64,000 nt of DNA from IMG/VR virus record IMGVR_UViG_3300020213_000027, positions 15,845 through 79,844 of that record. One strand, written 5' to 3'. The position numbers and the translations under genes were made by a program. Within the stretch, counting starts at the first letter, position 1. Each line of letters starts with the position of its first letter. This document shows positions 5,133 to 46,810 of the stretch, one piece after another. The notes under the pieces are model-generated. The model was given only the letters and a program-made list of their open reading frames with translations. It was not told the origin of the DNA and ran no database searches. The stretch is from a virus.

Positions 5133-5516
5133 ATGTCTGGTATAATATATATTATGAGCGCAAAAATATCTAAAAATGATAAGAGTTGGCTTTTAAACGT
5201 CATTAAGACTACAAGACCTCTAAATGATCTTGAATCAGCCCTTGTATTTACCACATTTGATTCTGAAACAAATCAAGATATTACTATAATTGAGAAAGAG
5301 ATTGAAAATGAGAAATTCTTAAAAAAAGTTTGTCTATACAAGCTATTAACTTTCATCCCTGAAATTGGTTTTATAACTTTACTTTTTGATAAAAAGGTAA
5401 AAAAATCAAAAATGGAAGTGACTTCTTTATATTATAAATACTATCGTAATAAAATAAATTTAACAGACTTTCAAAATAAGTTGAAAATCTTACTAAAAGA
5501 AGGTAATATAGTATAA
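5133..5516 (+). CDS. Hypothetical protein with C-terminal FxxKL motif
   Basis: Ends DFQNKLKILLKEGNIV. Confidence 0.5.
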   Translation: MSGIIYIMSAKISKNDKSWLLNVIKTTRPLNDLESALVFTTFDSETNQDITIIEKEIENEKFLKKVCLYKLLTFIPEIGFITLLFDKKVKKSKMEVTSLYYKYYRNKINLTDFQNKLKILLKEGNIV

Positions 5517-5731
5517 TGAAAGCAATTTTAGAGTTTACACTTCCCGAAGAGAATGAAGAATTTAAAACAGCACAAAATGGAGCCAACTATTCCATTGCAT
5601 TGTGGGATTTAGACCAATACTTGCGTTCTAAATTGAAATATGAAGAGCTTTCAGAAGAACAACACCAAGCATATCAGGATATTCGCGGCAAATTGTACGA
5701 ATTAATGCAAGAAAGAGATATAGATTTTTAA
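5516..5731 (+). CDS. Conserved small phage protein
   Basis: MKAILEFTLPEE...WDLDQYLRSKLKY pattern; TAATG overlap with the previous ORF. Confidence 0.6.
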   Translation: MKAILEFTLPEENEEFKTAQNGANYSIALWDLDQYLRSKLKYEELSEEQHQAYQDIRGKLYELMQERDIDF

Positions 5732-5734
5732 AAG

Positions 5735-5811
5735 TTTTGGATCGTCTACGTCGGTTAGGATAGCTAGGTCGACAGAACCAGCAGAAAAAGGTTCGACTCC
5801 TTTTCCAAAAT
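5735..5811 (+). tRNA. Degenerate/atypical tRNA, anticodon not assignable
   Basis: Acceptor TTTTGGA/TCCAAAA; D-arm with GG; T-arm AAAGG-TTCGACT-CCTTT; irregular anticodon arm lacking U33. Confidence 0.6.
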
Positions 5812-6601
5812 CCCTTTATGAGGCCCATATGAAAAAAGAAGAAGCATTAAAAAGAATTGAAACGGTGATTACCCAACTTGAGGGTATTTGTACTAATAAA
5901 CTCATCGCTCAAATGATTATGACAGAGCTTGAATTTCTAGGTATGCTGCCTCCAAAAATCTCTAAAGTCAAAAAATATACAACTAATGGAAACATGTTTG
6001 AATCTATTGAGTATACAAATGAGTGGGAAAATACATGATTCAATTTTTTCACTTAAATAAAGATTCTATTTTCTATTCTGGAATTGAATGTACTCTAGCT
6101 ATTAATACTCCCACAAAATCAGAACTTGAGAAATTTCTCGAAAATCACTTAGAAAGTTTATATCTTCCAGTTGGAATTACTGTCAAATCTCCAAAAGATG
6201 TGTTTATTAAAAAAATTGGAAGAGAAGAGTCATTAAAAAATATACAATCTAGAGAGTGTTTTTTTGATAATCTTTCCCAAGATGGAACAAAACATGTCTA
6301 TAGATTTAGAGCCTCTATTGCCCATGCAAGACATCATTTTATAGCCCATCTAATATTTACCACAGTATTGGAAAGTGACAATGTTCAAATGATTACTGCA
6401 GAAATTTATCTATGATTATTAATGATATGCCAGTTCTTGAAACTTTTAAAGATTTGATGAATGAAATAGCTTATAATTGGAATTATCCAATTAATGCTAT
6501 TATTAAAACAGAAGATGGTTGCTATGTAGTAGATAAACTATATATTCAAAAAGATGTGGTGTCCTATAAAACAAACCATTGGTATTTAGCTCCAGGAGTT
6601 T

Positions 6602-7303
6602 ATGAACAATTTGAGATCTTCTATGGTCTTTTACATCCTATTAACTATCACGAAATACGAGAATTTTAACTTGAAAATAGTAGCAATTTCCGATACACAT
6701 TCAATGCTAAATAAAGTATCCTTACCTGATGGAGATCTATTAATCCATTCTGGAGATGCGACTTCTGTTGGTCAAATTATAGATATTGTAAAATTTAATC
6801 AGGAACTAGGCGGCATCAAAACCAAATATAAGCATGGTATTATCTTTATTCCTGGAAATCATGACTTTCTTTTTGAAAGAAATCAACAATTAGCTAGAGA
6901 TATAATGACCAATGCTAAAGTTCTTATAGATGAGTCAGTTGAAATTGAAGGAATTAAGATCTATGGATCTCCTTGGCAACCAGAATTCAATAATTGGGCA
7001 TTTAATCTGCCTAGAGGAGAAGCTTTGAAACAAAGATGGTCTACCATTCCTGATGATACAAACATATTAGTGACGCATGGCCCTCCTTATGGTATATTAG
7101 ATAAATGTCCTGATGGTTCTTTAGTTGGATGTGAAGAACTTTATAAAAGAGTTTTTGAATTGAAACAACTTAAGCTGCATCAGTTTGGCCATATTCACCA
7201 TGCATGGGGAACTAAACAAATAGATAATATTACATTTATAAATGCATCCATTTGTACTGAAAACTATAAACCGACGAATAAACCCTGGATAATTAATATA
7301 TGA
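6602..7303 (+). CDS. Calcineurin-like metallophosphoesterase (true start probably TTG near 6671)
   Basis: SDTH, HSGD, PGNHD, THGPP, FGHIH motifs. Confidence 0.9.
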   Translation: MNNLRSSMVFYILLTITKYENFNLKIVAISDTHSMLNKVSLPDGDLLIHSGDATSVGQIIDIVKFNQELGGIKTKYKHGIIFIPGNHDFLFERNQQLARDIMTNAKVLIDESVEIEGIKIYGSPWQPEFNNWAFNLPRGEALKQRWSTIPDDTNILVTHGPPYGILDKCPDGSLVGCEELYKRVFELKQLKLHQFGHIHHAWGTKQIDNITFINASICTENYKPTNKPWIINI

Positions 7304-7686
7304 CAAGAACAATGCTTATTTTAGAAGATGCTTATGGTGATAAAGTTAGAGTTTCTCTTGATTCTATTCAAGGCTATAGAGCTTATCAAGCAGATATGAC
7401 AGAAGTATATTTTCCAAATGTTTCAACAATTTTTAAGATTTCTGTTGAACAACTTGATGCTATTTTGATTGAATGTTTATTTATGGTTAAAAAGGTACAT
7501 TAATATGTTTACTCGTGGAGCCTTCTATAGGCATAAAAGCACTCTTGATACTGATATATATGTAGTTAAAGTACAATATAGAGGAACAAATTATATTAAA
7601 ATGAAAGTAAATTTTGTTGATAGAAAACATACAGGGATTTTTCAATTAAATTATCATGCTAAAGTATTAAGAAAAGATTTTCATCT

Positions 7687-8253
7687 TTGGCAAAGAGTTC
7701 TATGATATTTACAAGTCTAGATTTAGAGCTTAATAAAGAAGGAAATCAAACTACAGACATAATCCAAATTGGAGCTGTCATTGGAAATATTTATACTGGG
7801 GAAATTCTAAAAAAACTTAGGCTTTATGTTAAGCCTTCAAAGCCTCTAGATCCTTTTATTATTACCCTTACTGGTATAAAGCAATCAGATATTGATGAAA
7901 AAGGAATAACTCTTCTAGAAGCTTACAATGAATTAAAGAAGTGCCATATTGATTTAAAGTCTCATCATAGCATTATTCAATGGGGTGGAGGAGATGAGAA
8001 GGAACTTAAAGAACAGCTGTTAAAACAAGGAATGCCTTTTTATGACTGGTGTTTTGGACGAACTTATTTTAATGTCAAATCTTTATGTCAATCTATCTCC
8101 AAAGCTAAGAAGCAAAAATTTCAAGGCGGATTAAAGAAATACTGCCAACGACATAAAGTAATTTTTGAAGGTCCAGCTCATGATGCGCTTCAGGATTCCC
8201 TTAATACCTTTAAACTATATGTAGATTTACTAAAGAAATTAGAAAAAATATGA
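7687..8253 (+). CDS. DEDDh 3'-5' exonuclease
   Basis: LDLE, IIQIGAV, LTGI, HDALQD motifs. Confidence 0.85.
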   Translation: MAKSSMIFTSLDLELNKEGNQTTDIIQIGAVIGNIYTGEILKKLRLYVKPSKPLDPFIITLTGIKQSDIDEKGITLLEAYNELKKCHIDLKSHHSIIQWGGGDEKELKEQLLKQGMPFYDWCFGRTYFNVKSLCQSISKAKKQKFQGGLKKYCQRHKVIFEGPAHDALQDSLNTFKLYVDLLKKLEKI

Positions 8254-8394
8254 GTAAATTAGATACTAAAAAGATTTATAAACGAGGAGTTCAAGCTCAT
8301 GAATGGGCAGCAGACGTAAATCCCTCTAAAAAACAAAAAAAGCAAAAAGTAAAAGAGCGCCAAGACGGGAAGAAACAAATTAAGAAAGAGCAGT

Positions 8395-8714
8395 ATGAGT
8401 GAAGGAACAAAGCATGATCAAGGTAAGGAGCCAATTAGTTTGATTAGTTCAAAAGCTTTATTAGAATTGACCCGAGTTTTAGAGTTTGGTCAAAAAAATA
8501 TGGAAGAGATAACTGGAGACAAGGCTTCAAATGGAGCCGTTGTTTTGATGCTACTATGAGGCATCTTCTAGCCTATAATGATGGTCAGAGAGTTGATTCT
8601 GAAAGTGGGAGATCTCATCTAGGGCATGCTATGGCCAACATTATGTTCCTTATTGAAATGGAACAATCTCAAACTGGTGAAGATGATCTATGGAAAGGTT
8701 ATAAAAAAGAATGA
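8395..8714 (+). pseudogene. dATP/dGTP diphosphohydrolase (DUF5664-type), frameshifted at an A7 run near 8492-8498
   Basis: GTKHDQGK...VLEFGQK in one frame; YGRDNWRQG...RHL...DSESGRSHLGHA in the -1 frame; stop overlaps the def ATG (ATGA). Confidence 0.75.
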
Positions 8715-9184: not shown

Positions 9185-9185
9185 A

Positions 9186-21063: not shown

Positions 21064-21297
21064 ATGTTTAAAAATAATTTCATACAAATATTAGATGTTA
21101 ATGATAGATCAGTTTGGATAGATTATACAAAGATTATATGTTTACATAAAGATGAAGGCAACCCAAATCAAATTAGAATCTTCCTGGAAGGTAAACAAAT
21201 CTGGCTTGATATAAGTATAGATAGCTTTTTTGATATAATAAACAAGCATGAGCATAACTTAAAATTTAATAAGTCTTTAGAAGAGATTATTAGTTGA
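21064..21297 (+). CDS. Hypothetical protein with C-terminal FxxKL-like motif
   Basis: Ends FNKSLEEIIS. Confidence 0.5.
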   Translation: MFKNNFIQILDVNDRSVWIDYTKIICLHKDEGNPNQIRIFLEGKQIWLDISIDSFFDIINKHEHNLKFNKSLEEIIS

Positions 21298-24741: not shown

Positions 24742-27465
24742 ATGTTTCAACCAACAGGATTTGCTCAAGAGATATTTCGAGATCGTTATGCATTCACTCC
24801 AACGGAAACATGGGAACAATGTGCCCTTCGTGTTGCGGAACAAATGGCAAGAGCAGAAGTTCCAGAGAAACAAAAGATTTACTTAGATAAGTTTTATAAT
24901 ATTTTAGTAAATAACTTCTTTGTTCCTGGAGGAAGAATATTATATAACTCTGGAAGAAATAATCCTCAACTTTTAAATTGCTTTGTATTAGGTGATAAAC
25001 TTGATAGTAAAGAAGGTTGGGGAAATGTAGCCAAAGAAATGGTTATCACAAGTATGACGGGCGGCGGATGTGGCATTGATTATTCAGATGTGCGTCCTAA
25101 AGGTGCTTCTATAACTGGACAGAAAGGCGAATGTCCTGGTCCAGTTGAGCTTATGAAGCTTGTAGATGGTTGTGCAAAGCCTGTACGTGCAGGAGGCCAA
25201 AGGCGAGTCGCCTTAATGTTTAGTCTAGATTTAGACCATCCTGATGTGTTAGAATTCCTAGATGCCAAATTAGAAAAAGGTATGCTAACTCATGCCAACG
25301 TATCTGTACGATCTAAAAAAACTTCCAAATTTATTAAAGCAATTAAGGAAGATGGAGATTGGGAATTGTCATGGAAAGGCAAATACAAAAAAACTATTAA
25401 AGCTAAAGAACTTTGGAATAAAATTGTCCAAAATGCTTATGATTCTGCTGAACCAGGATTTCTTAATTGGGAATTAGTTTCTAATGAATCAAATATTGGA
25501 TATGTTGAAGATTTGGTTACTACTAATCCATGTGTTATAGGGGAAACAGAAATATTAACTAAAGATGGATATACTAGAATTGATAGTCTAGTTAATCAAG
25601 AAGTTGAAATTTGGAATGGATTTGAATGGAGTAAAGTTACACCCAAAATTACAGGAAAAAATCAATCGGTAGTAACTGTTTTATTAAGTAATGGTTTGAG
25701 CTTAACTTGCACAGATTACCATAGATTTGAGATAGCTACTAATTATACAGGAAATCAAAAATCTATCTTAGCAAAAGATTTAGAGCCTGGAATGAAACTT
25801 ATTAAACATAATTTTCCTATTATAGAACATGGGGCTAATTTACGAGATGCTTATACTCAAGGATTTGTGGCAGCAGAAGGAATGGAACTAAATAAAACCT
25901 TGTATGTTTATAAACCTAAAGAGATCTGTATAAGTAGATTAGAAGGTATTAAAAAATCTAGTTGGGAAGAAAATAATAAAAGATTCAGAATTATATTAAA
26001 AGAAATTCCCTATTCTAAAAATTTTGTACCAATTGAATATAATCTAAAATCAAAATTAGATTGGCTTGCCGGATTGTTTGATGGTGATGGGTGTGAGCTA
26101 AAAGAAGGAGGACTACAATTAGTATCAGTTAATAGATCTTTTTTACTAAATTTACAAAAATTACTTACTACAGTTGGAATTTCTTCAAAAATATTACTAT
26201 TTCATTCTGAAGGTATGCGAATGATGCCTAATCATAAGGGAGGCAATCAAGAATACTTTTGTAAAGAATCATATAGAATATGTATAGGAGCATTTCAAAT
26301 ACAAGAACTTAAAAAATTAGGATTTAAATGTGAGAGACTAAAATTTGAAAAATCTCCTAATAGAGACGCTTCTCAATTTGTTACTGTAGTAGATGTTACT
26401 GATTCTGGTATAGCCGACACAGTTTATTGTTTCAATGAGCCCTTAAAACATTTAGGCATTTTTAATGGGATTATAACTGGTCAATGTGGAGAAATTGCTT
26501 TATCTTCTTATGATTGTTGTTGTCTTGGCCATCTTGTTTTACCTCGTTTTATTACCAATTCTAGTATTGATTATGCTTTGCTTGCTGATGTTATTCGTGC
26601 TTCAGTTAGATTCTTAGACAATGTCTTAACCGTTAATTCTTATCCTCTTCAAGAAATGAGAGATAAATCTCATAAACTTAGAAGAATCGGGCTTGGAACA
26701 ACAGGACTAGCTGATACGTTAACAATGTTAGGACTTCAATATGGAAGTGAAGAAGGTAATAAGTTTTTAGATAAACTTTATAGATTCATTTCCAAAATTG
26801 CTTATGAGACTTCTGTAATGCTCGCAGTTGAAAAAGGTATGTTTCCGGCATGTGATCCCGATAAGCATGTAGAATCTGATTTTATGAGAAGAATGCCTAA
26901 TAAGATTAGATCTTTAGTTCGTGAACATGGGATTAGAAATTGTGCTATATTAACTCAAGCTCCAACAGGAACAGTTAGCATTCTTTCAGGAAACTGTAGC
27001 TCAGGAATTGAGCCTATGTTTGCTCCAGTATATGAACGTAGATTTTGGAAAGATAATGAAAGAAAAATTGAACTTGTATTTCATCCTTTATTTGAACAAT
27101 ATATGAAGCAAGGAAAAGATGTCAGGCATTTTATTGGTTCACACAATCTTTCTGTGAAGGATCACCTAGAAGTACAGCGTATTGTACAAAACCATGTTGA
27201 TAATGCAGTTTCAAAAACGATAAATATTCCTAACACTTATTTAATAGAAGATATGGAAAGACTTTGGTTAAAATATTTGCCATATTTAAAGGGCACCACT
27301 TTTTATAGAGAAGGAACTAGAGGATATATTGATGAGAAAGGGGTAGAACACCTACCTCCATTAACCCCACTTTCTTTAGAAGAAGGTGTTGCCAGATTTA
27401 AAGAGTCGCATAAAATCAATTCTGAAACTGTTGATGATTGTATTTCTGGAATTTGTGAAATATGA
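24742..27465 (+). CDS. nrdJ: Ribonucleotide reductase, class II (B12-dependent) type, intein-containing
   Basis: PGGRIL, NCFV, TNP|CGEI after splicing, APTGTVS, VSKTIN, C-terminal CISGIC; no beta subunit in the window. Confidence 0.88.
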   Translation: MFQPTGFAQEIFRDRYAFTPTETWEQCALRVAEQMARAEVPEKQKIYLDKFYNILVNNFFVPGGRILYNSGRNNPQLLNCFVLGDKLDSKEGWGNVAKEMVITSMTGGGCGIDYSDVRPKGASITGQKGECPGPVELMKLVDGCAKPVRAGGQRRVALMFSLDLDHPDVLEFLDAKLEKGMLTHANVSVRSKKTSKFIKAIKEDGDWELSWKGKYKKTIKAKELWNKIVQNAYDSAEPGFLNWELVSNESNIGYVEDLVTTNPCVIGETEILTKDGYTRIDSLVNQEVEIWNGFEWSKVTPKITGKNQSVVTVLLSNGLSLTCTDYHRFEIATNYTGNQKSILAKDLEPGMKLIKHNFPIIEHGANLRDAYTQGFVAAEGMELNKTLYVYKPKEICISRLEGIKKSSWEENNKRFRIILKEIPYSKNFVPIEYNLKSKLDWLAGLFDGDGCELKEGGLQLVSVNRSFLLNLQKLLTTVGISSKILLFHSEGMRMMPNHKGGNQEYFCKESYRICIGAFQIQELKKLGFKCERLKFEKSPNRDASQFVTVVDVTDSGIADTVYCFNEPLKHLGIFNGIITGQCGEIALSSYDCCCLGHLVLPRFITNSSIDYALLADVIRASVRFLDNVLTVNSYPLQEMRDKSHKLRRIGLGTTGLADTLTMLGLQYGSEEGNKFLDKLYRFISKIAYETSVMLAVEKGMFPACDPDKHVESDFMRRMPNKIRSLVREHGIRNCAILTQAPTGTVSILSGNCSSGIEPMFAPVYERRFWKDNERKIELVFHPLFEQYMKQGKDVRHFIGSHNLSVKDHLEVQRIVQNHVDNAVSKTINIPNTYLIEDMERLWLKYLPYLKGTTFYREGTRGYIDEKGVEHLPPLTPLSLEEGVARFKESHKINSETVDDCISGICEI
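25531..26484 (+). mobile_element. Intein with LAGLIDADG endonuclease, Gln-terminal (318 aa)
   Basis: CVIGETEILTKDG...CTDYHRF...WLAGLFDGDG...VYCFNEP...FNGIITGQ|C. Confidence 0.9.
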
Positions 27466-27855: not shown

Positions 27856-27885
27856 TTGACATTGTAGTTATTAAAGTGCTATAAT
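27856..27885 (+). promoter_or_regulatory. sigma70-type promoter
   Basis: TTGACA-18 bp-TATAAT with extended -10 TG. Confidence 0.65.
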
Positions 27886-28054: not shown

Positions 28055-29158
28055 ATGACACAAAAACTATCATTTAGTGCAATAAATACATATACACAAT
28101 GCGGTAGAAAATATGAGCTTCGTTATAAGAAGAATCTAAGAGGTAAGTATTTTCATGCAGCTTTAGCATTTGGATCTGCAATTGATTCTTCTCTCAATGA
28201 GCTTCTATTAACTAAGGATTTATCTAAAGCAAAATTAGTATTTGACAAACAATGGAATTTTCAATTTATTAATAAGAAATATACGTCTTTACCAAGTTAT
28301 ACGGACATAGTTTATGCTGAAGCTGATTTTGATGAAGAATTATTAACTGATGCTGATAAGAATGATTTGCATGTAACTCTTTTAAATTTAAATGTTGATG
28401 GAACTTATTTAGAAATATATAATAATGTTCTAGAAGAGAAAAAAAGCAAAGGCTGGGATAATTTAACTCTAGAAAAAAGAAAATTCTTTAATTATACTAA
28501 TTGGCTATCCTTAAGACAAAAAGGATATATAATGCTAGAAAGCTATAATAAAAAAGTTATGCACCAAATAGAAGAGGTCCTTGCTGTTCAAAAGGAAAAT
28601 TATCTTCAAAACTCAGATGGTGATAAGGTAGTTCAATATTTAGATTTAATTGTAAGGTGGAAAGATGGACAAAGCATATTATTTGACAATAAAACTAGCG
28701 CTAGGGACTATGACATGGATAGCGCTGCACGCAGCCCGCAGCTCATCAGCTATTATCATGGCGCTAAAGAAGAATATGGATTAAATGCCATAGGCTTCAT
28801 AGTTTTAAAGAAAAATATACTTAAAAATAGACAAAAGATATGCAGCATTTGTATCAATGATGGAAGTGGAGGTCGTCATAAGACTTGTGATGCTACTATC
28901 AATGGAAAACGTTGTAATGGTAAATGGAATGAAAGAATCGACCCAGAAGCTAGCATCCAAATTGTTATTAATAAAGTAACAGACGTAGCTGAAAATTTAG
29001 TACTTGAAACCTTTAATGAAGCTAATGATGGAATTAAAAAAGGTAATTTTTATAGGAATTTATCAGCATGTCAAAATGGACCTATAATTTGTGAGTATAA
29101 GAATCTTTGTTGGAAGAATGATTCTAGTGAAATTGTAGATATGAGTAATGAAAAATGA
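28055..29158 (+). CDS. PD-(D/E)XK (Cas4/RecB-like) exonuclease
   Basis: LSFSAINTYTQC, LDLI, DNKT, QL-Y, C-terminal Cys cluster. Confidence 0.8.
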   Translation: MTQKLSFSAINTYTQCGRKYELRYKKNLRGKYFHAALAFGSAIDSSLNELLLTKDLSKAKLVFDKQWNFQFINKKYTSLPSYTDIVYAEADFDEELLTDADKNDLHVTLLNLNVDGTYLEIYNNVLEEKKSKGWDNLTLEKRKFFNYTNWLSLRQKGYIMLESYNKKVMHQIEEVLAVQKENYLQNSDGDKVVQYLDLIVRWKDGQSILFDNKTSARDYDMDSAARSPQLISYYHGAKEEYGLNAIGFIVLKKNILKNRQKICSICINDGSGGRHKTCDATINGKRCNGKWNERIDPEASIQIVINKVTDVAENLVLETFNEANDGIKKGNFYRNLSACQNGPIICEYKNLCWKNDSSEIVDMSNEK

Positions 29159-29481
29159 ATAAACTAATTTGGTATCCAATTACTAAAAAAACATACACTC
29201 ATAAAAAAGCTTTAAATTATGCTAAAGCTAGAGGATTAAGATTACCAACTGTTGAAGAAATTAAAGAAGCTATTAAAAATAAAGAAGATTTAGGTAAAGT
29301 TTCATTCTGGTCATCGGAGGTTCATCCAGATGGTCCCGAATTCGCCTTCGTCTTCTTGGACGATGGCTATATTCTCAGCGACAATCGTGACTTTGGCTTA
29401 TCGGTGCGCTGCGTGGAGACTGAGAAAGAAAAGTATAATAAAGAATTTAAAAATAAGCTTGATAATTTAATAAATGAATAG
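29155..29481 (+). CDS. DUF1566/C-type-lectin-fold protein (DGR-target-like) with FxxKL tail
   Basis: RLPTVEE, FWSS, SVRCV; GC-rich VR-like segment at 29305-29416. Confidence 0.7.
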   Translation: MNKLIWYPITKKTYTHKKALNYAKARGLRLPTVEEIKEAIKNKEDLGKVSFWSSEVHPDGPEFAFVFLDDGYILSDNRDFGLSVRCVETEKEKYNKEFKNKLDNLINE

Positions 29482-29906
29482 TATAATAAACATATTAGAA
29501 CGACTGATAGGATTTTTAAGGAGAATATCGATGGCCAGACCTAAAACAATAACACTTGAGCATGGAACAGTTTCACTTCAAGGATTTCCAAAAGAAGTAT
29601 CCGAAGCTCTTGCTGAACATATTAAGAACTATGGAAAACCTGCTTCAACAGAAGCAACTACATCTACAGTTTCTATTCCCACTTCTTCTGTAACAACACC
29701 AATCCCTGTCAATCAAGTTAGTTCTGAACTAACTGACACAGCTGTGGGAGTTAGACAGATTGGTAATAAATATGAACTAGTTCTAGTAAAATATAATGCA
29801 CAGACTAAAGATGCCAGTGTGCTAACTGTAGAGCCCTATGAATTTAGAAGAGAGGCTATTATGAAGTTTAAGATGAAAGCTTCTGAATTGAATTTTGTTT
29901 AATTTC

Positions 29907-30038
29907 GTGAATATTATTAAAGATATAATAGAATTAAGAAAAATAGGATGCAAATTAATTGATATAGCCAATAGCTATAAAATTAATAGGTCTTATTTAA
30001 GTAGAATTATTAAAAGACAAGTTAGAAGGGATATATAA
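29907..30038 (+). CDS. Stand-alone HTH, probable homing-endonuclease remnant
   Basis: IIELRKIG...DIANSYKINRSYLSRII, 43 aa. Confidence 0.4.
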   Translation: MNIIKDIIELRKIGCKLIDIANSYKINRSYLSRIIKRQVRRDI

Positions 30039-30694
30039 TGAGCGGTTTAATTTATAAAAAAATGGCAAGTGTTATGCAAGAAATTGGTCCTGTGACAAAG
30101 GATCAAAAAAATGTAGCTCAAGGATTTAAATTTCGAGGAATTGATCAATTTGTTAATGCTCTTCATCCAGCTTTAGTTAAACATGGAGTTTTTATGGCAC
30201 CAAGAGCAACTTCATATACACAAGAACTTAAAGAAGTACAAAGAAGTAGCGGAAAAAATGGCATTGATAAACATGTTAGTATTATGATGGAATATGATTT
30301 TTTTGCTGAAGATGGAAGTAAAGTTACTATTGGGCCTATTCCAGCAGAGGGTCTCGATAGTGGAGATAAAGCAACAAACAAAGCTCTTTCTGCAGCTTTG
30401 AAATATGCGCTTATTCAAACATTTGCTGTACCTACAGAAGATATGGAAGAAGCTGATAAAACTAGTCCAGAAATAAATTCATTCACTAAGACTAAACCAA
30501 CAGCAAAACAAGAAGAACCAACTTCAATTACAGTAATTAATGGAATAGGGACAGTAGGAAAAGTTACTCTTGATACTACACTTTCTGGACCAAATACACC
30601 AGCTACCCCAGTCTCTTCTCCTAAATCAGGATTTGCTAGCTTTAAAGCAAATGGATCAGCTGGACCAGCTAAAACTTCTAACGGAATATTTTAA
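30038..30694 (+). CDS. ERF-family ssDNA annealing protein
   Basis: GFKFRGID, GLDSGDKATNKALSAALKY. Confidence 0.85.
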   Translation: MSGLIYKKMASVMQEIGPVTKDQKNVAQGFKFRGIDQFVNALHPALVKHGVFMAPRATSYTQELKEVQRSSGKNGIDKHVSIMMEYDFFAEDGSKVTIGPIPAEGLDSGDKATNKALSAALKYALIQTFAVPTEDMEEADKTSPEINSFTKTKPTAKQEEPTSITVINGIGTVGKVTLDTTLSGPNTPATPVSSPKSGFASFKANGSAGPAKTSNGIF

Positions 30695-31820: not shown

Positions 31821-31862
31821 CCCGAGATAACATATTCCCCTATGCTTGTCTCGGGTTTTTTT
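31821..31862 (+). terminator. Intrinsic terminator
   Basis: CCCGAGATAA...TTGTCTCGGG stem followed by T7. Confidence 0.75.
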
Positions 31863-32076
31863 ATTTATGAAGATCAAAAAAACTATTAAAGCAACAGTTG
31901 GAAATATAATAAAACATAAATCTGAATACTTTTATAAAAGGTTTGGATATGGGTTTATTATTGAAATCGTTAAAGATGAAATATCAGTAATTTGGGGAAT
32001 ACTCGAATCTAGATCTCTTTATACTAAAACATATTTAAACAATATGGAATTAATAACAGATGTATTCAAAGTTTAA
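31846..32076 (+). CDS. KOW/SH3-like mini-protein
   Basis: VGNIIKH...ELITDVFK. Confidence 0.5.
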   Translation: MSRVFLFMKIKKTIKATVGNIIKHKSEYFYKRFGYGFIIEIVKDEISVIWGILESRSLYTKTYLNNMELITDVFKV

Positions 32077-32254
32077 AAAAGGTGATATAGTAATTACAAT
32101 GAATGATCAATATGAATTTCTTATGGATAAACCAATCTACGATAAAGATTATTATGGGAAATATAAAATTCAAGTTGGACCAACAGCTCATATTTCAGCA
32201 AAAATTGCTAAGTTAGTAACAAAAGTTTTTAGAGAGGAAGATAATGGAATATAG
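32060..32254 (+). CDS. KOW/SH3-like mini-protein
   Basis: FKKGDIV...KLVTKVFR. Confidence 0.5.
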   Translation: MYSKFKKGDIVITMNDQYEFLMDKPIYDKDYYGKYKIQVGPTAHISAKIAKLVTKVFREEDNGI

Positions 32255-34172
32255 ACGATTAACTGAAGGACTAAATGATAAAGGAAAACTTATACCGGCT
32301 CATTCTGATATATTTAGTTATATTTCAGATAGAAATAAGGATTACTATTTAAGCACGTATAAATATACCGAAAAACATAGAGAGCAGTTCTTAGAACATG
32401 GAACAATCGCAGGAATTACAGACGTAGTTACGGAGAAAATTTGGTGGGATTTTGATAGTGAGTTTGATCCAGACACCGCAAAAGCGGATACCATAAAACT
32501 AGTTAATAAACTTATCCTAAAGGGCATTGAAAAAGAAGATATTTTTATTGCTTTTTCAGGAAATAAAGGTTTTGGAGTAGAAGTAAATCTATTGGAAACC
32601 TACACACCAAAACAGATTAAAAGCATAGCATTCGAGCTAGCTGAAAATCTATCTACATTTGATACAAAGATGTATAATGCTTCTAGAGTATTTAGAGTAT
32701 ATGGAACAAGACACAATAAAACAGGACTGTTTAAAACTCCTTTAACTTTTAATCAGTTAAATGAGCTATCTTCAGATAACATTATGAAATTGGCTAGTTC
32801 ATTTCCTAAATGGGACAATGAATTTAGATGGGATGCTGTGACATCTCCTTTTATTGTAAATAAAGAACATGAATCAATAATTGAAGAAAGAGTTGAAAAT
32901 TTAATTCCAACTTTAGATTATTCAATGAAACCCAAATTTCTAAGTAATTGTAGATGGGCTATCCAAAATGGATATTTTAAACAAGGAGATAGAAATATTG
33001 CTTTACTTTGTTTAGGATCTACATATAAAAATATGGGATTTACAATTGAGCATGTATATCGACTTTTAAAGGGAGTTGCAGAACTGCAATCTAAATACAG
33101 CCAAACAGAAAGATTTTCAGATAGTGAACTATTTAATAATATTATTAAAGTAGTATTTGCTGCAACTTGGAATAATGGACAATACACATGCCGAGAAGAT
33201 AAAAACTGGCTTCATACTTTTTGTTCAAAGCTAGAACATCCTTGTAATCATAAAACTGAAGATGAACTAAAGCCTAGAACATTTATGGATCTTAAGGATG
33301 ATTTTAAACATTATGTTAAGAATATTCATAAGAACACAATCCTAACTGGATTGCCTAGCATTGATAAGAATGTATTTCTTTCAACTGGAGCTAACGTCGG
33401 AATTATTGGAGCAGCTGGATCGGGAAAAACTACAGTAGCTCTTGAAATCCTAAATCATACTTCTAAAGCCGGAGTAAGGTCTGTATGTGCAAGTTTGGAT
33501 ATGGCAAAGAATCGTATTTTTGAAAAGATTCTTTATCGTCTAACTGGTCATGATAGAACAGAACTTTATAGGATATTTCAAGATAATGAAGAAGAACCAA
33601 TACTAAATCAACTTAAAGAAGAATTTGGTAATGTACAATTCTTTAAGAAGAGTTCTCCCACTGTTCAAGATATTAAAGATTATATTATTAAATGTAATGA
33701 AGTGAGTGATGAAAAGATCAAACTAGTTGTGATTGATTATTTTGAACGAGTATCATCTGATTTTAGTGATGATACCCAAGCTAGTAAGAAAGTAGCTGGC
33801 GAACTTCAGGATTTAGTAGATGATCTAGATGTGTGTCTTATAACTCTTGTTCAACCTAATAAATTTGCACTAGTTGGTGGACCAGATCAACCTATTTATG
33901 ATTACACTAAAATTAAGGGTAGTAGTTTTGTTTACCAAGCTTTTCGAATCATTATTTCTTGTTGGAGACCTTTCTTTAATCCTAAAACATTTATGAATGA
34001 TAAATATATGCAAATGGCAGTGCTAAAGAATGATCTAGGAGAACTTGCCGAATTTGAATTTAATTGGGAAGGTAAACGTGGCATAATCAGTGAAATGGAA
34101 GATTTTCAACATGCCGAATTTGAAGAACTTTTAAGACAAAAAGTAGAAACTAAGAAAGACACTCTTTTTTAA
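32244..34172 (+). CDS. Primase (AEP-type)-helicase (SF4/DnaB-like) fusion
   Basis: WDFD, FSGNKGF, GAAGSGKT, VVIDY motifs. Confidence 0.85.
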   Translation: MEYRRLTEGLNDKGKLIPAHSDIFSYISDRNKDYYLSTYKYTEKHREQFLEHGTIAGITDVVTEKIWWDFDSEFDPDTAKADTIKLVNKLILKGIEKEDIFIAFSGNKGFGVEVNLLETYTPKQIKSIAFELAENLSTFDTKMYNASRVFRVYGTRHNKTGLFKTPLTFNQLNELSSDNIMKLASSFPKWDNEFRWDAVTSPFIVNKEHESIIEERVENLIPTLDYSMKPKFLSNCRWAIQNGYFKQGDRNIALLCLGSTYKNMGFTIEHVYRLLKGVAELQSKYSQTERFSDSELFNNIIKVVFAATWNNGQYTCREDKNWLHTFCSKLEHPCNHKTEDELKPRTFMDLKDDFKHYVKNIHKNTILTGLPSIDKNVFLSTGANVGIIGAAGSGKTTVALEILNHTSKAGVRSVCASLDMAKNRIFEKILYRLTGHDRTELYRIFQDNEEEPILNQLKEEFGNVQFFKKSSPTVQDIKDYIIKCNEVSDEKIKLVVIDYFERVSSDFSDDTQASKKVAGELQDLVDDLDVCLITLVQPNKFALVGGPDQPIYDYTKIKGSSFVYQAFRIIISCWRPFFNPKTFMNDKYMQMAVLKNDLGELAEFEFNWEGKRGIISEMEDFQHAEFEELLRQKVETKKDTLF

Positions 34173-34342
34173 TGAGATTAGGAGATATTGTACAACATAA
34201 TATATTAAGAGAGTATGGATTTGTTTATAAAGTCCAATCTGAGAAATATTTTGTACGATTTCCTGGTAGATCTTTTGCTTATGTTTATACATATCAAAGT
34301 CCTCAAATGTTAAAAATTATAAGTAAGGCATTTAGAGAATGA
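34172..34342 (+). CDS. KOW/SH3-like mini-protein (not in the ORF track)
   Basis: MRLGDIVQH...KIISKAFRE; TAATG and ATGA overlaps with both neighbours. Confidence 0.6.
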   Translation: MRLGDIVQHNILREYGFVYKVQSEKYFVRFPGRSFAYVYTYQSPQMLKIISKAFRE

Positions 34343-36559: not shown

Positions 36560-36802
36560 TTGATTATGATTACTACAGGTAGTATTATTTCAGGTACTTT
36601 ATTTGTAAATTGCGATTCAGGAGCTCTTGCTATAGACAAACTTGAAAATCTATTAAAACTCCGTGGCGCCAATACATTTTGTGATAGCAATAATTCAGAT
36701 AAATATTATATCTTAATTGAAAAGATTGAACTTGACGCTCTAAAAGCAGAATTACATAGACTGCAGTTCCAATTAAAACTTGATAATCTTATAAAAGAGT
36801 GA
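36560..36802 (+). CDS. Hypothetical protein with C-terminal FxxKL motif
   Basis: Ends FQLKLDNLIKE. Confidence 0.5.
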   Translation: MIMITTGSIISGTLFVNCDSGALAIDKLENLLKLRGANTFCDSNNSDKYYILIEKIELDALKAELHRLQFQLKLDNLIKE

Positions 36803-36814
36803 GATAATAATTGT

Positions 36815-38528: not shown

Positions 38529-38791
38529 ATAAAGGAAATATTATTCTTATATTGGGATGTTTAATATCTATTGTAGGATTGTCTATTTTAGCTCTTTATG
38601 GTTTTACTCCCAAATTTAAACCCGGAGATTGTATTACATTGAAAAATCTTGAAGAATGGGATAACTTTAAATGTAAAGTATTAAAAGTAGGAAAATATAA
38701 ATATCTTCTAGATTGTCCTGGTTTTTCAAATAAAAAAGATCCTTACATAAATGATACAGATTCTGAATATGGAAAAGTAGCTTGTGAATAG
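38507..38791 (+). CDS. Membrane-anchored small beta protein (paralog of the previous ORF)
   Basis: TM segment then FKPGDCITLK...C. Confidence 0.5.
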   Translation: MFGRKTMNKGNIILILGCLISIVGLSILALYGFTPKFKPGDCITLKNLEEWDNFKCKVLKVGKYKYLLDCPGFSNKKDPYINDTDSEYGKVACE

Positions 38792-39050
38792 GATATCTGC
38801 TTTGTATTTTGCATTTAAATTATATCTACAAGTTAGATATATGCTTTATAAGCATAACATTCCTTGGAAATATGTTCATGAGGAGTTAATTTTATATCTT
38901 ATGGAATTAGATACTTTTTATCTACCTAAAAATATGATACCCTCATTTATATTATTTCATATTGAAAACACATTTATAATAGAAGTCATTAAAACAAATC
39001 TAGTTTATAGAAAAAGATTTGAAGAAAAGTTAAATAGGATTATTAAATGA
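38784..39050 (+). CDS. Hypothetical protein with C-terminal FxxKL motif
   Basis: Ends [10 protein letters not shown]. Confidence 0.5.
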   Translation: MNRISALYFAFKLYLQVRYMLYKHNIPWKYVHEELILYLMELDTFYLPKNMIPSFILFHIENTFIIEVIKTNLVYRKRFEEKLNRIIK

Positions 39051-40150: not shown

Positions 40151-40412
40151 TCTATTTCTAATACTCACAAGTTGTGCAACTATTCCTAAACATAGATTTG
40201 AATTAGGAGATTGTATTATTTATTATAAGAGAACGCCACACCCTTTGATGCATTTTCCTGAAGAAGTTATTGATATCAATAAAGAAGGATATGTTACTAG
40301 AATAGTTCCAATGTGGCATTTTACTAGGCCAAGACTAAATAATATTCCTTTTAATAATGAAGAAGACTATCTTAAAGTTGGTTGTCCAGTTCTAATGAAA
40401 GAATACGATTAA
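40122..40412 (+). CDS. Lipoprotein, same family as 38232/38507
   Basis: LTSC lipobox; FELGDCIIY...KVGC. Confidence 0.5.
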   Translation: MKPMEKIIASLFLILTSCATIPKHRFELGDCIIYYKRTPHPLMHFPEEVIDINKEGYVTRIVPMWHFTRPRLNNIPFNNEEDYLKVGCPVLMKEYD

Positions 40413-40495
40413 TGAAGTTTCATTATTTAAGAAGTTTGGGCTATCCTAATAAGGTATTTAATGCTAAACTAGAAAAGTTAGCAGATGATGAGTAA
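40412..40495 (+). CDS. 27-aa micro-ORF, little more than the FxxKL motif
   Basis: MKFHYLRSLGYPNKVFNAKLEKLADDE; TAATG overlap with the upstream stop. Confidence 0.45.
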   Translation: MKFHYLRSLGYPNKVFNAKLEKLADDE

Positions 40496-43005: not shown

Positions 43006-43285
43006 TGTGGCTAAATCTAAAGGTAAAAGTGAAGTTGAAGAACTAAAAGGATTAGTTAGGTCTTTGCAAAAAGAGGTCAAACGCACTAAAAAGAGACAAC
43101 ATCTTTATGAAGATCTAGAAATTAAACAAGCTGAAGAAATGATTAAAGAAGAGATCGAAGAAAAACAAACACTTAAAGATGAGCGATGCCCAAAATGTCA
43201 GGGAAATCTTGAAATAATTGATGGAGCTCGGATTAAAGTATTTTTCTGCTCAGATTGTGATTATCGAAAAAGTAAACGTGTATAA

Positions 43286-43672
43286 ATGGCTAAAAAATTT
43301 AATAGAGATGCATGGCTTATGCACCAACTTCGTAGGCTATCCTTAAAATACCCGCCACGTATTAGAGCCCTTAATAAGACAAAGACTACTTATTATATCA
43401 CCTCTAAAAAAGGTACACAAGTTAAACGTGTTTCCTTTACTTGTGAATCTTGTGGAAAGTCTGGACTAAAGAGTACAGAAAAACAGATGGATCATCACCA
43501 TCCCGTTTCTGATGAAAGAGGGTTTGTTGATTGGAATTTGTTTCTCATAAATCTTTTCTGTGAAGAAGATAACTGGTGTACCCTTTGCATACCTTGCCAT
43601 GAAAAGAAAACTTTAGAAGAAAATACTGAAAGATTTCTTTTCAATAAAAAAACAGTTGACAAAACTAAATAG
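43286..43672 (+). CDS. HNH endonuclease
   Basis: CESC, MDHHHP, NWCTLCIPCHEKKT. Confidence 0.8.
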   Translation: MAKKFNRDAWLMHQLRRLSLKYPPRIRALNKTKTTYYITSKKGTQVKRVSFTCESCGKSGLKSTEKQMDHHHPVSDERGFVDWNLFLINLFCEEDNWCTLCIPCHEKKTLEENTERFLFNKKTVDKTK

Positions 43673-43684
43673 ATCTTATATACT
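43656..43684 (+). promoter_or_regulatory. sigma70-type promoter
   Basis: TTGACA-17 bp-TATACT. Confidence 0.55.
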
Positions 43685-43690
43685 ATTTAC

Positions 43691-43975
43691 ATGATCGAAA
43701 AGCTTAAATTACTTTTTCAAAAATTAAATGAAAAAGGCATACCAATCCCATTATTGACAGATCCACGAACTAAAATAGGAAGTGTTTCTCTAACTATGTT
43801 AGTGATATCATTCAATATTGTTTTAATAGGATTAGTTGGTAAATGGTCAAAATATTTAGATATTGATTTACAGCAAGCTATTTATTGGTTTATGGTTTGT
43901 TCTGGTCTTTACTTTGGAAGAGCTGTTTCTAAGAATGGCAATAATACTCAATTAGATAATAAGGAAATTAAATGA
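43691..43975 (+). CDS. Holin-like two-TM protein
   Basis: Two TM segments, YFGR, charged tail. Confidence 0.5.
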   Translation: MIEKLKLLFQKLNEKGIPIPLLTDPRTKIGSVSLTMLVISFNIVLIGLVGKWSKYLDIDLQQAIYWFMVCSGLYFGRAVSKNGNNTQLDNKEIK

Positions 43976-44730
43976 ATTTTAAGATATTAAGTTTTGTTGG
44001 TGTAAGTGTGTTGGCAATGGTAACTAGTGTGGGTTGGATGTTTAATAATGTAGCAACTAGTAAAGAAGTGCTTATTCCTTCTACAAACCTTGAAAACAAA
44101 GTTATAAAACTCCAACCAGTTCCTTCTAACAACAGTTCTGTGTTACGTCTAAATCTTCTTTCAGAACAAGTTGTCCAACTTAAAGGACCTATTTTTGAAA
44201 ATGCAGAATTTGTAGTTGAAGAGCTAAAACAAAAAGCCAAGACCCAAAAGGAACTATTTCTTTTGATTGATAGTCCTGGAGGTAGTGTGATGGCTGGAGC
44301 AATGATCCTATCAGCAATGGAGGCATCACCTGCATTAGTCCATACTGTTTGTATGGGACTTTGTGCAAGTATGGCTTTTGTTATTCATCAATATGGACAC
44401 TCAAGACTAGCTCTTAATAGAGCTATTCTTATGGCACATCCAGCTGCTGGAGGAGTAGAAGGAACACTTGGGCAAATGAGTGCTAGACTATCTACTATTA
44501 CTAGATATGTAGATAAAATGGATGCACATATTGCTAAACGAGCTAAGATTAGTTTTGAAGACTTTAAAGCTCTTACTGTATCTGAATTTTGGATTGATTC
44601 AGAAGATGCCCTTGAAAAACATTTTCTTGATAAAATTGTAGATATTAATGTTGATGCCTCTGGTACGGTATTTATTATGAAACAACAATCAGATGACAAT
44701 CTTTATAAACATATGGATTTGGTTTGGTAA
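43972..44730 (+). CDS. ClpP-like serine protease with N-terminal signal/anchor
   Basis: IDSPGGSV, CASMA, LMAH, hydrophobic N-terminus. Confidence 0.8.
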   Translation: MNFKILSFVGVSVLAMVTSVGWMFNNVATSKEVLIPSTNLENKVIKLQPVPSNNSSVLRLNLLSEQVVQLKGPIFENAEFVVEELKQKAKTQKELFLLIDSPGGSVMAGAMILSAMEASPALVHTVCMGLCASMAFVIHQYGHSRLALNRAILMAHPAAGGVEGTLGQMSARLSTITRYVDKMDAHIAKRAKISFEDFKALTVSEFWIDSEDALEKHFLDKIVDINVDASGTVFIMKQQSDDNLYKHMDLVW

Positions 44731-45384
44731 ATGATAAAGAGAATTTTGTTCTACACACTCCTAATAACCATTGGCTTTATTTCTTTTGCTCCTCATAAAA
44801 AGCAGGTGGTATCTCCAGATCTAAATATTGCATTTGGGCTAAAGTTTAATAATAGGGGTTTTTATCCCATAGTTAGATTAGTAGATCCTATATTAAAATA
44901 TAGTTGTACAGCTTTTATTATCGATACAAATTATGCAATAACAGCTGCTCATTGTTTAAATTCTCAAGGATCATTACCTACCCATGATTTACAAGTATTT
45001 TTGAATCAAACTAATCAATATGTTCCAGTAAGAGCTATGGGATATGATGAAGATTTAGATACTGGTCTTGTTATGGGAGACTTTCATTTATTTAGATCGC
45101 TAAATACAGACTTTAAAAATGAGATGGATGATTCTTCTGATTTTTTAGCTTGTGGCTATCCAAGAAATCAAAAAAGAATGATTTGTAATAAATTTACACC
45201 AGAAACTAGATCTTTTGATATAGTTAAAGGTAGAGGACAATTTTATCATGGTATGTCTGGTGGTCCAGTTATTAACACTTACACAAATAAGGTAATAGGA
45301 ATAGTCGATGCAATGGATGGAGAAGGCTATGCTTATGTAGTTCCTCTTCAAGCATTCTTTGGTATATTTCCTCAAATTGAATGA
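44731..45384 (+). CDS. Trypsin-like serine protease with signal/anchor
   Basis: TAAHC, D, GMSGGP. Confidence 0.85.
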   Translation: MIKRILFYTLLITIGFISFAPHKKQVVSPDLNIAFGLKFNNRGFYPIVRLVDPILKYSCTAFIIDTNYAITAAHCLNSQGSLPTHDLQVFLNQTNQYVPVRAMGYDEDLDTGLVMGDFHLFRSLNTDFKNEMDDSSDFLACGYPRNQKRMICNKFTPETRSFDIVKGRGQFYHGMSGGPVINTYTNKVIGIVDAMDGEGYAYVVPLQAFFGIFPQIE

Positions 45385-45806
45385 ATATTGAACAAAATAC
45401 AATTGAAGTTAATAAGATTATAAAAAATTTAAATGATCATCTGATTAAAGATAGTTTTAATAAATCCGGTCATGCGGTGCGGTATAATTTTTGGATTAGT
45501 GATATTTTTTATACCATAGAGCCTAACGTGAGGTATCTATTAATAAATATACCTTATACAGTCTTTCTTAGACAAACTTGGCAATCTACATTATTAGCTC
45601 AATTTGAAATGGGTATAAATAAACTAAAGAAAAAATTGAAATTAGAATCTAATAAATATATAGGTAATATTTATATTACTCAGATTTTTATCTCACCAAA
45701 TTATAATGGGATAGAATGTAGCATTATTGCTAGAGCTGAAGATATATCTAAATTATTAGATAACGAAAAATTTAAAAACAAATTAGAGGATCTTATAAAT
45801 GAATGA
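45381..45806 (+). CDS. Hypothetical protein with C-terminal FxxKL motif
   Basis: Ends FKNKLEDLINE. Confidence 0.55.
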   Translation: MNIEQNTIEVNKIIKNLNDHLIKDSFNKSGHAVRYNFWISDIFYTIEPNVRYLLINIPYTVFLRQTWQSTLLAQFEMGINKLKKKLKLESNKYIGNIYITQIFISPNYNGIECSIIARAEDISKLLDNEKFKNKLEDLINE

Positions 45807-46293
45807 AGTATTGAAAAAAGGACTAATTATTATTAGTTTGGTAGGAATTGGTGTTGCAGCTGGCAGGTTTGCAGCACCAACCAAAACTATTGAAAAAGAA
45901 GTTATTAAAGAAGTAGAGAAGATTGTAGAAAAAAGAATAATCGTAAAAGATACTTCTGAGAAAAAGAACAAAGTTACAGTAAGGTTAGTAACTATCCATC
46001 CTGATGGTACTAAAACTATTGAAACACGAATTACTGATAAAAGTGAGATTGAAGTCACACAAAACGAGAATTCTACTAAAACAGATGATAAATCTCTTGA
46101 CAAGTCAATTGAAAAAGTGGTAGAGTATAGTAAAGATGATTACTATCTTGGTTTAGGAATTAAGACTAATTTGACTACTGGTGGACTTGCCTATGGACTT
46201 CATGCCCAACGTAGAATTTTAGGACCTATTCACCTAGGCATCTTTGGATATAGTGATCTATCTCTTGGAGCAAATGCTGGCATAAGTTTTTAA
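45799..46293 (+). CDS. Spanin-like envelope protein (N-terminal TM, C-terminal beta-strands ending in Phe)
   Basis: TM, charged linker, four Gly/aromatic strands, ...AGISF. Confidence 0.5.
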   Translation: MNEVLKKGLIIISLVGIGVAAGRFAAPTKTIEKEVIKEVEKIVEKRIIVKDTSEKKNKVTVRLVTIHPDGTKTIETRITDKSEIEVTQNENSTKTDDKSLDKSIEKVVEYSKDDYYLGLGIKTNLTTGGLAYGLHAQRRILGPIHLGIFGYSDLSLGANAGISF

Positions 46294-46618
46294 TGAAAAT
46301 ATCTATATCTGACTTAATAAAAATAGCTAACGAAGACAAGGATGAATTATCCTATAATAGAATCACTACAAGTAATGATGTATTTAGATTTGTATTAGCT
46401 ATGGATATTAGAGAAGGTAAGCACAAAGTAAGAACTACATTTATTTATAAAGCTTATAAATCTTGGAGTTTAAAACCTTACCCTAAGATTTCTTTTTTTA
46501 CGTATTTTTCAAGTATATTTCGTAATAATAGAATATCTGATGATAAAAGATATTATGAGCTAAATTATACTGCAGTAAAACTTTTAAATAAAATTGATAA
46601 TTTAAAGATAAGGATAAA

Positions 46619-46810
46619 ATGAGCACACTAGCTGAAATATTTAGAGAAATCTATTATGATCCAATTGATAAGCTTATTGGCTATAATTGGATTGATTTAG
46701 AAGGAAACGATTTTAAATTTGAGTCGGAAATGGAAAGAGATAATTATATAAAATTATATTATCACAATAAGAAATTTAATAAAAAACTAGAGGATATTAT
46801 AAATGAGTAA
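46619..46810 (+). CDS. Hypothetical protein with C-terminal FxxKL motif
   Basis: Ends FNKKLEDIINE. Confidence 0.55.
   Translation: MSTLAEIFREIYYDPIDKLIGYNWIDLEGNDFKFESEMERDNYIKLYYHNKKFNKKLEDIINE

Follow-up and report, generated by a model that had tools for sequence, protein, structure and literature searches.

Twelve small proteins encoded in the early region of an uncultured phage share one short C-terminal peptide, F-x-x-K-L-[ED]-x-[LIM]-[IV]-(N-E), which we call the tag and which, from the sequence comparisons set out below, looks like a common address or docking label. The phage genome is represented by a single virus record of 79,844 bp with 33% G+C (IMG/VR record IMGVR_UViG_3300020213_000027), and the 64,000-nt stretch analysed here, referred to as the window and used for all its coordinates, corresponds to bases 15845–79844 of that record. 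The 12 tagged open reading frames (ORFs) all lie on the + strand with the F codon 8–15 codons upstream of the stop, and they are listed in Table 1 together with an orphan copy in a gene spacer. We put at about one in two the probability that the tags of each genome are subject to one shared constraint, most likely a common putative reader or the mutual binding of tags.

Chance is excluded as the source of the C-terminal placement. A strict pattern, F..KL[ED].[LI]I, matched five C-termini and no internal position, against 0.00 and 0.02 in 300 residue shuffles, and a relaxed pattern matched 11 C-termini and again no internal position, against 0.09 and 0.9, with a maximum of two in any shuffle; the outcome for the relaxed pattern was alike for whole-protein shuffles and for shuffles restricted to the last 30 residues. 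All 12 ORFs named by a first-pass annotation of the window, which had listed them by their start positions, exist with the endings it reported, and the counts agree with its proposal that the motif is characteristic of C-termini. When both strands were scanned with a DNA weight matrix, 13 sites scored 18.5–37.3 bits, the best non-tag match 17.5 bits (at 30010) and the next 14.5; the 30010 site was rejected as a copy, being a Shine-Dalgarno (SD) plus ATG look-alike in another reading frame, inside a small helix-turn-helix (HTH) gene. There are no further copies on the - strand or in the remaining 15.8 kb of the 79,844-bp genome. BLASTP similarity among the tagged window proteins was confined to the last 12–23 residues, so that the bodies are largely unrelated, as had been claimed; the claim needs slight correction for the ORF at 12374–12664, which belongs to a DGPA/WYxNG-repeat family, and for the relatives introduced below, where three tagged ORFs of L007 and one of L026 are paralogues.

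The tag is conserved at the amino-acid level. Over its nine core codons the information is 3-periodic, at 8.3, 11.1 and 3.8 bits for codon positions 1, 2 and 3, and at the hydrophobic positions only the middle T of the codon is kept; inspection of the codons confirmed that their variety among copies is real. Between window copies the proportion of synonymous differences (pS) is 0.69–0.73, that is, saturated, and that of non-synonymous differences (pN) is 0.30–0.31, while pN/pS is lowest in the true frame (0.43, against 0.63 and 3.3–4.0 in the two shifted frames). The frame that yields the peptide is used by 12 of the 13 window copies and by all 11 copies in L007 and L026, a single frame in 23 of 24 copies.

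The same DNA also carries signals for the following gene, as would be expected of a DNA- or RNA-level junction element (a shared translation-initiation region, a promoter or a recombination cassette) translated only by chance. In 8–9 of the 13 window copies, as in three of the six copies of L026 and two of the five of L007, the F codon lies 27–29 nt 5' of the next gene's ATG; in such in-register copies the L-E-D codons read YTAGAGGAT, in which GAGGAT is an SD match, and the N-E codons contain the ATG, so that an early caveat about overlap with the ribosome-binding site (RBS) and start of the next gene was correct for these 8–9 copies. Two copies, at 29446 and 36767, coincide in part with strong sigma-70-like promoter matches whose -35 box falls in the K-L-D codons, the site at the tag of ORF 29155–29481 being TTGATA-17-TATAAT. 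Against such an element, the core is kept in ten off-register copies (four in the window, at offsets of 37–63 nt, and six in the relatives), 13 nt separate the invariant F from the SD downstream, the signals overlaid on the tag differ from copy to copy (SD, promoter or none), and mean pairwise DNA identity, measured in the relatives G001–G003, is only 0.62–0.69. The conserved genes at 29474 and 39047, which lie 3' of tagged ORFs, have different upstream junctions in L007 and L026, which assigns the tag sequence to the upstream ORF rather than to the start of the gene that follows. A promoter function was rejected because sigma-70-like matches are no commoner than in shuffles and only two tags overlap strong ones. 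The best such matches on the early strand lie at 27856–27885, 29459–29487 and 43656–43684 (12, 11 and 11 of 12 positions), the second of them inside a tag. Given the periodicity, the frame test, the four off-register window copies and the differing start regions of the downstream genes in relatives, a DNA-level signal cannot account for the motif, and the tag DNA would have been reused secondarily as RBS and ATG, or as promoter -35 box, for the next gene.

The closest DNA analogue of the tag is the start-associated sequence (SAS) of cluster K mycobacteriophages (Pope et al. 2011; PMC3203893), whose 13 bp are repeated almost exactly at the DNA level, independently of the upstream reading frame. 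Like the tag, SAS is a repeated motif in one orientation in the non-structural half of the genome and is linked to genes of different families; it includes the SD and stands a fixed short way ahead of start codons (PMC3203893). Of the 13 window copies, 8–9 keep such a distance (27–29 nt) and four lie at 37–63 nt. The analogy fails on periodicity and frame: where SAS copies deviate at two positions or fewer, the tag DNA has low identity with pS near 0.7 and 3-periodic conservation (8.3/11.1/3.8 bits), and it is read in one frame.

Relatives carry the tag in lineage-specific versions. No close relatives were found among named phage records and IMG/VR by megablast, single-protein peptide patterns or a degenerate tag DNA pattern, and the nearest named phage is a Flavobacterium phage with only 31% polymerase identity. 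The nearest relatives, L007 (65% polymerase identity) and L026 (61%), are metagenomic, and about 22 kb of each was read around the polymerase; three further IMG/VR genomes, G001, G002 and G003, were recruited by means of a MoxR anchor and read whole. G001 is complete at 87.6 kb, with a MoxR 61% identical to that of the window, and all three have portal, terminase, capsid-region, MoxR and vWA genes in common with the window. Throughout, ORFs are our own crude in-house choices, and protein endings are written up to the stop codon. The six copies of L026 are FDKKLEVMVNE, FNKKLAKLVE, FNIKLEKIVNE, FDNKLENLINES, FNQKLEKLVNE and FHEKLEKL, and the five variant copies of L007 are FNKELNKLLD, FNKELEKVLE, FNNNLDKLLEEE, FNKELDRVLE and FNKNLEDILK. 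Core genes are syntenic across the window, L007 and L026, and the tagged ORFs sit in variable slots with no detectable homology between phages, the exceptions being a conserved micro-ORF and one small family, MTF, with three members in L007 and a single one in L026. The slot of ORF 36560–36802 is filled by tagged ORFs in L007 and L026 as well. The micro-ORF has 27 codons in the window (37 if a TTG at 40382 is the start) and 27 in its positional ortholog in L026, which ends ..PNKEFHEKLEKL; over 16 aligned codons motif residues account for all six synonymous changes, and the five non-synonymous ones are confined to variable positions. Where polymerase identity was 56% or less, relatives had no tag copies within 10 kb of the polymerase.

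Each of the three whole genomes has its own version of the ending: K-x-x-H-x-x-x-F-x-x-K-M-[ED]-E-[LF]-L-K on 22 ORFs of G001 (9 internal matches), [DE]-I-x-E-W-L-K on 10 ORFs of G002 (1 internal match) and E-[VI]-K-D-L-L-K on 33 ORFs of G003 (1 internal match). All versions have the hydrophobic spacing i, i+4, i+7, i+8 with an adjacent acidic residue, and in these genomes too the tags show pS of 0.70–0.80, pN of 0.25–0.30 and least information at codon position 3. One orthologous pair shows the shift directly: ORF 12374–12664 and its G001 counterpart both lie just 3' of the vWA gene and align end to end, each with the tail of its own genome (..KHTNKFNKKLEDL in the window, ..KHDEQFASKMEDLLKDE in G001, where the tail itself is FASKMEDLLKDE). 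Residues that are uniform within a genome over scrambled synonymous sites mean that recent gene conversion is not what keeps the tags alike, and it is the uniform tags, the saturated synonymous sites and the joint shift between genomes that argue for one shared constraint per genome.

At least one tagged protein shows the tag to be an add-on to a known fold, as judged from its homologues. The body of ORF 29155–29481 had no Pfam match, and a search of 1.84 billion representatives gave 55 homologues at E ≤ 0.001, with the shared motifs RLPT..EE, FWSS and VRCV; 27 of 31 aligned homologues stop 1–7 residues past the VRCV strand without a tag, and a tag-like tail on this body was found only in the window protein and three metagenomic proteins (..FEFNSKLEELIND, ..RFREKLDILL and ..KFKNKLQALKKDLK). 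An AlphaFold model built on the homologue alignment is a C-type-lectin-like domain (predicted local distance difference test, pLDDT, 96.8) matching solved lectin-like domains at a TM-score of about 0.6, so that sequence and fold alike place the body in the DUF1566/C-type-lectin-like group, as the first-pass annotation had suggested. The tail is predicted as a helix (residues 90–106), and the helical hydrophobic moment of the consensus tag, 0.62, exceeds the 0.30 of shuffles, in agreement with the amphipathic helix that had been proposed. Together with codon periodicity and the frame test, the lectin homologues and the helix model support that annotation's central idea of a portable, protein-level C-terminal helix on diverse small proteins.

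We propose a C-terminal amphipathic alpha-helix of about 11 core residues, or 15–20 with an upstream part (extended consensus [KYH]-x-x-x-F-x-x-K-L-[ED]-x-[LIM]-[IV]-[NK]-E), that has been added to a large number of small proteins, unrelated to one another, fast-evolving and encoded in the early region, in this phage lineage. A putative reader, or association between tags, would bind the hydrophobic face F/L/L/I and the neighbouring acidic residue.

The leading candidate reader, only on gene neighbourhood and analogy, is the pair formed by the MoxR-type ATPase and the zincin-like metallopeptidase fused to a vWA domain (Table 1). The pair is present in all four of the window and G001–G003, the ORFs directly 3' of the vWA gene are tagged in all four, and in the window both of the two ORFs just 3' of it are tagged, as had been stated. 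The genes are intact in the window (PF07728 with Walker A and B; DUF2201_N + DUF2201, with HEILH at residue 83 and the metal ion-dependent adhesion site (MIDAS) DSSGS at residue 307, in a vWA domain of residues ~300–429). MoxR has 748 homologues at E ≤ 1e-20. In the passages drawn on here, Kaur et al. (2020; PMC7159879) describe, beside vWA-MoxR systems, zincin peptidases whose substrates are small variable proteins bearing a conserved peptide at the C-terminus, and propose that vWA domains capture peptides for MoxR. The window shares with those modules MoxR, vWA and zincin genes accompanied by small, fast-diverging proteins whose conserved part is a C-terminal peptide, such as FxSxx-COOH in the modules. 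It differs from the modules as described in those passages, which are bacterial conflict systems with other motifs (FxSxx, RxD or acidic peptides, and not F-x-x-K-L-[ED]-x-h-h) and with a third component, VMAP, iSTAND or FtsH; in the window a single protein combines zincin and vWA domain, the genome is that of a lytic-type phage and tagged genes are scattered over 41 kb. None of VMAP, iSTAND, FtsH or a beta-propeller was found among the proteins scanned, the whole genome not having been scanned for them. The same two-gene pair has been described in jumbo phages of group 2.2, with a proposed role in virion assembly with peptidolytic processing and no tagged clients reported (Iyer et al. 2021; PMC7824862), unlike the present phage of 80 kb with its SU10-like portal and adaptor domains. 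Literature searches for a C-terminal tag described with phage MoxR/vWA returned nothing relevant, and we found no published description. If the tag were a handle for client recognition by this machine, a specific proposal that we consider rather unlikely, the vWA MIDAS would capture the acidic residue of the helix, with dozens of small early proteins as clients for the ATPase and peptidase then to remodel or cut, and the code would differ from one phage lineage to the next.

The orphan copy lies in the 45-nt spacer between the two genes, out of the MoxR frame; its 25-codon frame has no canonical start codon and its F codon stands 28 nt before the vWA gene's ATG. A frameshift or truncation of MoxR was rejected as its simple origin, since MoxR homologues all end ..KYGK at about 351 aa and the gene is thus complete. 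If tRNA-Lys slipped by -1 at GGA-AAA-TAG (11034–11042), which does not form a canonical slippery heptamer, MoxR would read on into the orphan frame (11015–11095), and such a slip may occur at a low level.

Several points weigh against a common reader, and against this pair in particular. The lectin tail has pLDDT of 96–98, equal to the core, with no linker after the last strand, and in this model may be packed on its own domain rather than hanging free. The difference between tag ends in NE and in K is explicable by overlap with the next ATG. The orphan copy is untranslated at the exact 28-nt register, as expected of a DNA-level element. The MoxR/vWA pair belongs to the core genes of the entire phage group, in which most polymerase-sampled relatives have no tag within 10 kb, and therefore is not sufficient for tags; moreover, G001–G003 were found by MoxR anchoring, so that the nearness of tags to MoxR is partly by construction.

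Of the explanations that dispense with a common reader or address, a self-contained structural helix fares best, although we consider it unlikely: a generic C-terminal capping or oligomerisation helix, stabilising or multimerising small proteins and spread by descent and by recombination between gene ends. The confident, linkerless lectin tail fits such a helix, in several proteins the helix seems to reach 20–28 residues upstream, and some tagged ORFs are related (the MTF family of L007 and L026, and ORF 12374–12664 with its G001 ortholog). Yet the same residues (F, K, L, E/D, L/I) recur on differing folds and sizes, from 27 to 225 aa, the 27-aa micro-ORF being almost solely tag; 27 of the 31 aligned lectin-body homologues manage without it; and a change of version throughout a genome (position 5 from L to M, the end from NE to K) would be unexpected of a helix fitted to each body.

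If the tag served in capsid loading, it would direct a variety of small proteins into the procapsid, to be co-injected. The end I-N-E is similar to the L/I-x-E cleavage site of the T4 prohead protease, the tagged genes are small orphans that evolve fast, and the ClpP-like protease gene adjoins a tagged ORF. The internal defence proteins of T4 are diverse too, with nothing in common but a short targeting peptide, the capsid targeting sequence (CTS), so that in both cases one short terminal peptide is the sole shared part of diverse, fast-evolving small proteins; the CTS, unlike the tag, is N-terminal, is removed by the prohead protease and occurs on a handful of proteins (PMC3012670). The tag is helical, never N-terminal, with nothing beyond it to cleave off, and it occurs on 12 (window) to 33 (G003) genes of the early, replication-gene strand, opposite the structural module; the 22–33 tagged proteins found per genome in relatives would also be many for head cargo, and we regard capsid loading as improbable. 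A comparable logic is found in the encapsulation peptides of bacterial microcompartments and the cargo-loading peptides of encapsulins, short terminal amphipathic peptides by which unrelated cargo docks on one shell protein, and the hydrophobic spacing of the tag resembles that of the former. Their sequences are unlike the tag, and we saw no gene for a microcompartment or encapsulin shell; the phage capsid is the only shell present.

A degradation or processing signal, marking early proteins for timed removal or for cleavage by a phage protease, has equally poor prospects. Classical C-terminal degrons of the ssrA or MuA type present their last few residues, mostly non-polar or basic, at a fixed distance from the carboxylate, whereas the tagged proteins end in -NE, -E, -K, -S, -T, -DDK or -GNIV, with 0–6 residues after the core, and are thus polar or acidic and of variable length. 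Candidate proteases exist, namely the zincin of the vWA protein together with MoxR (an intact HEILH zincin fused to a MIDAS-bearing vWA domain and adjoining MoxR) or the ClpP-like/trypsin-like pair at 43972–45384, and the zincins that cut small proteins by a conserved C-terminal peptide in the cited passages of PMC7159879 offer a precedent. The peptidase pair, however, is also found in relatives that have no tags seen near the polymerase. A DNA- or RNA-level junction element, finally, we judge very improbable on the codon, frame and register evidence above.

Table 1. The tag copies of the window and the neighbouring MoxR/vWA gene pair; tag positions run from the F codon through the stop codon.
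Feature	Position	Strand	Tag	Tag position	Remarks
127-aa ORF	5133..5516	+	FQNKLKILLKEGNIV	5469–5516	weak copy
MoxR-type AAA+ ATPase	9987..11042	+			PF07728; Walker A GPPGVGKS, Walker B VLLLEE
Orphan tag copy	11060..11095	+	FKKKLEGMVNE	11060–11095	MoxR-vWA spacer
Zincin-like metallopeptidase fused to vWA domain	11088..12377	+			DUF2201_N + DUF2201
96-aa DGPA/WYxNG-repeat protein	12374..12664	+	FNKKLEDL	12638–12664	directly 3' of vWA gene
61-aa ORF	12661..12846	+	FNKKLKEIVNEDDK	12802–12846	
91-aa ORF	14473..14748	+	FTTKLEKEIES	14713–14748	
74-aa ORF	14750..14974	+	FQDKLEKLINET	14936–14974	
77-aa ORF	21064..21297	+	FNKSLEEIIS	21265–21297	
108-aa C-type-lectin-like (DUF1566-like) domain + 21-aa tail	29155..29481	+	FKNKLDNLINE	29446–29481	
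78–80-aa ORF	36560..36802	+	FQLKLDNLIKE	36767–36802	after DNA polymerase
69–88-aa ORF	38784..39050	+	[10 protein letters not shown]	39018–39050	weak copy
27-aa micro-ORF	40412..40495	+	FNAKLEKLADDE	40457–40495	little else than tag
141-aa ORF	45381..45806	+	FKNKLEDLINE	45771–45806	3' of ClpP-like + trypsin-like protease genes
63-aa ORF	46619..46810	+	FNKKLEDIINE	46775–46810	closest to consensus

Among the listed copies, two are weak by leave-one-out scoring with a position-specific scoring matrix: that of ORF 5133–5516 (11.7 bits, with the next ATG 47 nt past the F codon) and that of ORF 38784–39050 (only 6.3 bits), which overlaps the start of the GMP reductase-like gene. For ORF 21064–21297 the following gene starts 63 nt past the F codon. 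Searches of Pfam and PHROGs with the tagged ORFs of the window, L007, L026 and G001–G003 gave nothing significant except one DUF6745, ESM Atlas gave no usable result for tagged ORFs, and the 141-aa protein of ORF 45381–45806 has no homologue except itself among 5.8 billion proteins.

DNA of this phage is contained in microbial-mat metagenome runs, and no RNA datasets are listed among the sequencing runs that contain it. The + strand block at ~5.1–46.9 kb that carries the tagged ORFs comprises replication and nucleotide-metabolism genes, and the recognisable enzymes, as previously remarked, are without a tag: besides MoxR and the metallopeptidase-vWA protein these are a ribonucleotide reductase, a PD-(D/E)XK nuclease, an Erf-like annealing protein, a DnaB-like helicase, a family A DNA polymerase, an IMPDH/GMP reductase-like enzyme, a dUTPase, an RNase H-like protein and the ClpP-like and trypsin-like proteases, with ~70 small ORFs interspersed among their genes. 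The structural genes are on the - strand, including SU10/P22-like portal and SU10-like adaptor domains. The large subunit of the ribonucleotide reductase (24742–27465; 907 aa) has a LAGLIDADG-type insert, probably an intein, and the DNA polymerase of L026 (8423–11749; 1108 aa) has intein/LAGLIDADG domains, that of the window being 738 aa long. A small HTH-like ORF (29895–30038; ..IANSYKINRSYLSRIIKR..) is directly followed by the gene of the Erf-like single-strand annealing protein (30038–30694; PHROG 155, E 2e-35). The ClpP-like (PF00574, E 7.5e-26) and trypsin-like genes are adjacent, at the end of the early strand and distant from the portal and capsid genes, and may include the prohead protease. 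By gene-content profiling the genes at 29474, 30704, 31003 and 40485 occur only in the window, L007 and L026; they match no known family, and may be merely fast-evolving. The first 100 bases of the record are repeated at ~61696–61795 of the window, about 2.3 kb before the record end and in a part with 45% G+C, and are not a terminal repeat of the record as given.

Other recurrent endings were seen in this phage group. At least 13 ORFs of L026 end in Y-T-D-I-F-[VIL] with an ATGA overlap to the next gene (e.g., 252–440, 437–658, 655–834, 831–1031, 5891–6013, 7997–8218 and 12015–12573), and the window has weaker forms, ITDVFKV, KVFRE.., KAFRE and KIFRR.., on ORFs 13929–14114, 31846–32076, 32060–32254 and 34172–34342; the bodies are mostly dissimilar by BLASTP, several start M..GD.V, and the Y-T-D-I-F ending resembles, by eye only, the clamp-binding peptides of bacteria (x-D-[IL]-F). 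Five ORFs of G001 (L107) end in [IV]-[IV]-P-I-[LM]-E-L-[LI], beside its 22 KMEELLK-type tags. A further relative, L017, has six paralogues composed of HRTDGPA...WYQNGK repeats (6009–7300 and 12299–13800), all ending ..LTE.EFNSPSFMEFIKLIG, and ORF 12374–12664 of the window contains one repeat of this type. The L017 tail (SFMEFIKLIG) was rejected as a version of the tag, as its profile misses the window tag and weakly hits the repeat of ORF 12374–12664 (E 0.14), and we regard it as the tail of a family of its own.

No part of phage genomes is less well understood than their small orphan early genes, and the tag, common to 13% of early-strand ORFs in the window and labelling up to 33 genes per relative, would unite them as one functional set. 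It offers a direct experimental handle for seeking the candidate reader, and its lineage-specific versions amount to a natural co-variation experiment by which that reader might be found computationally. The use of the same codons for a peptide and for an RBS, start codon or promoter is a clear case of overlapping constraints at phage gene junctions. If the MoxR/zincin-vWA pair does read the tag, this would provide a function and a client list for a widespread, unexplained phage gene pair.

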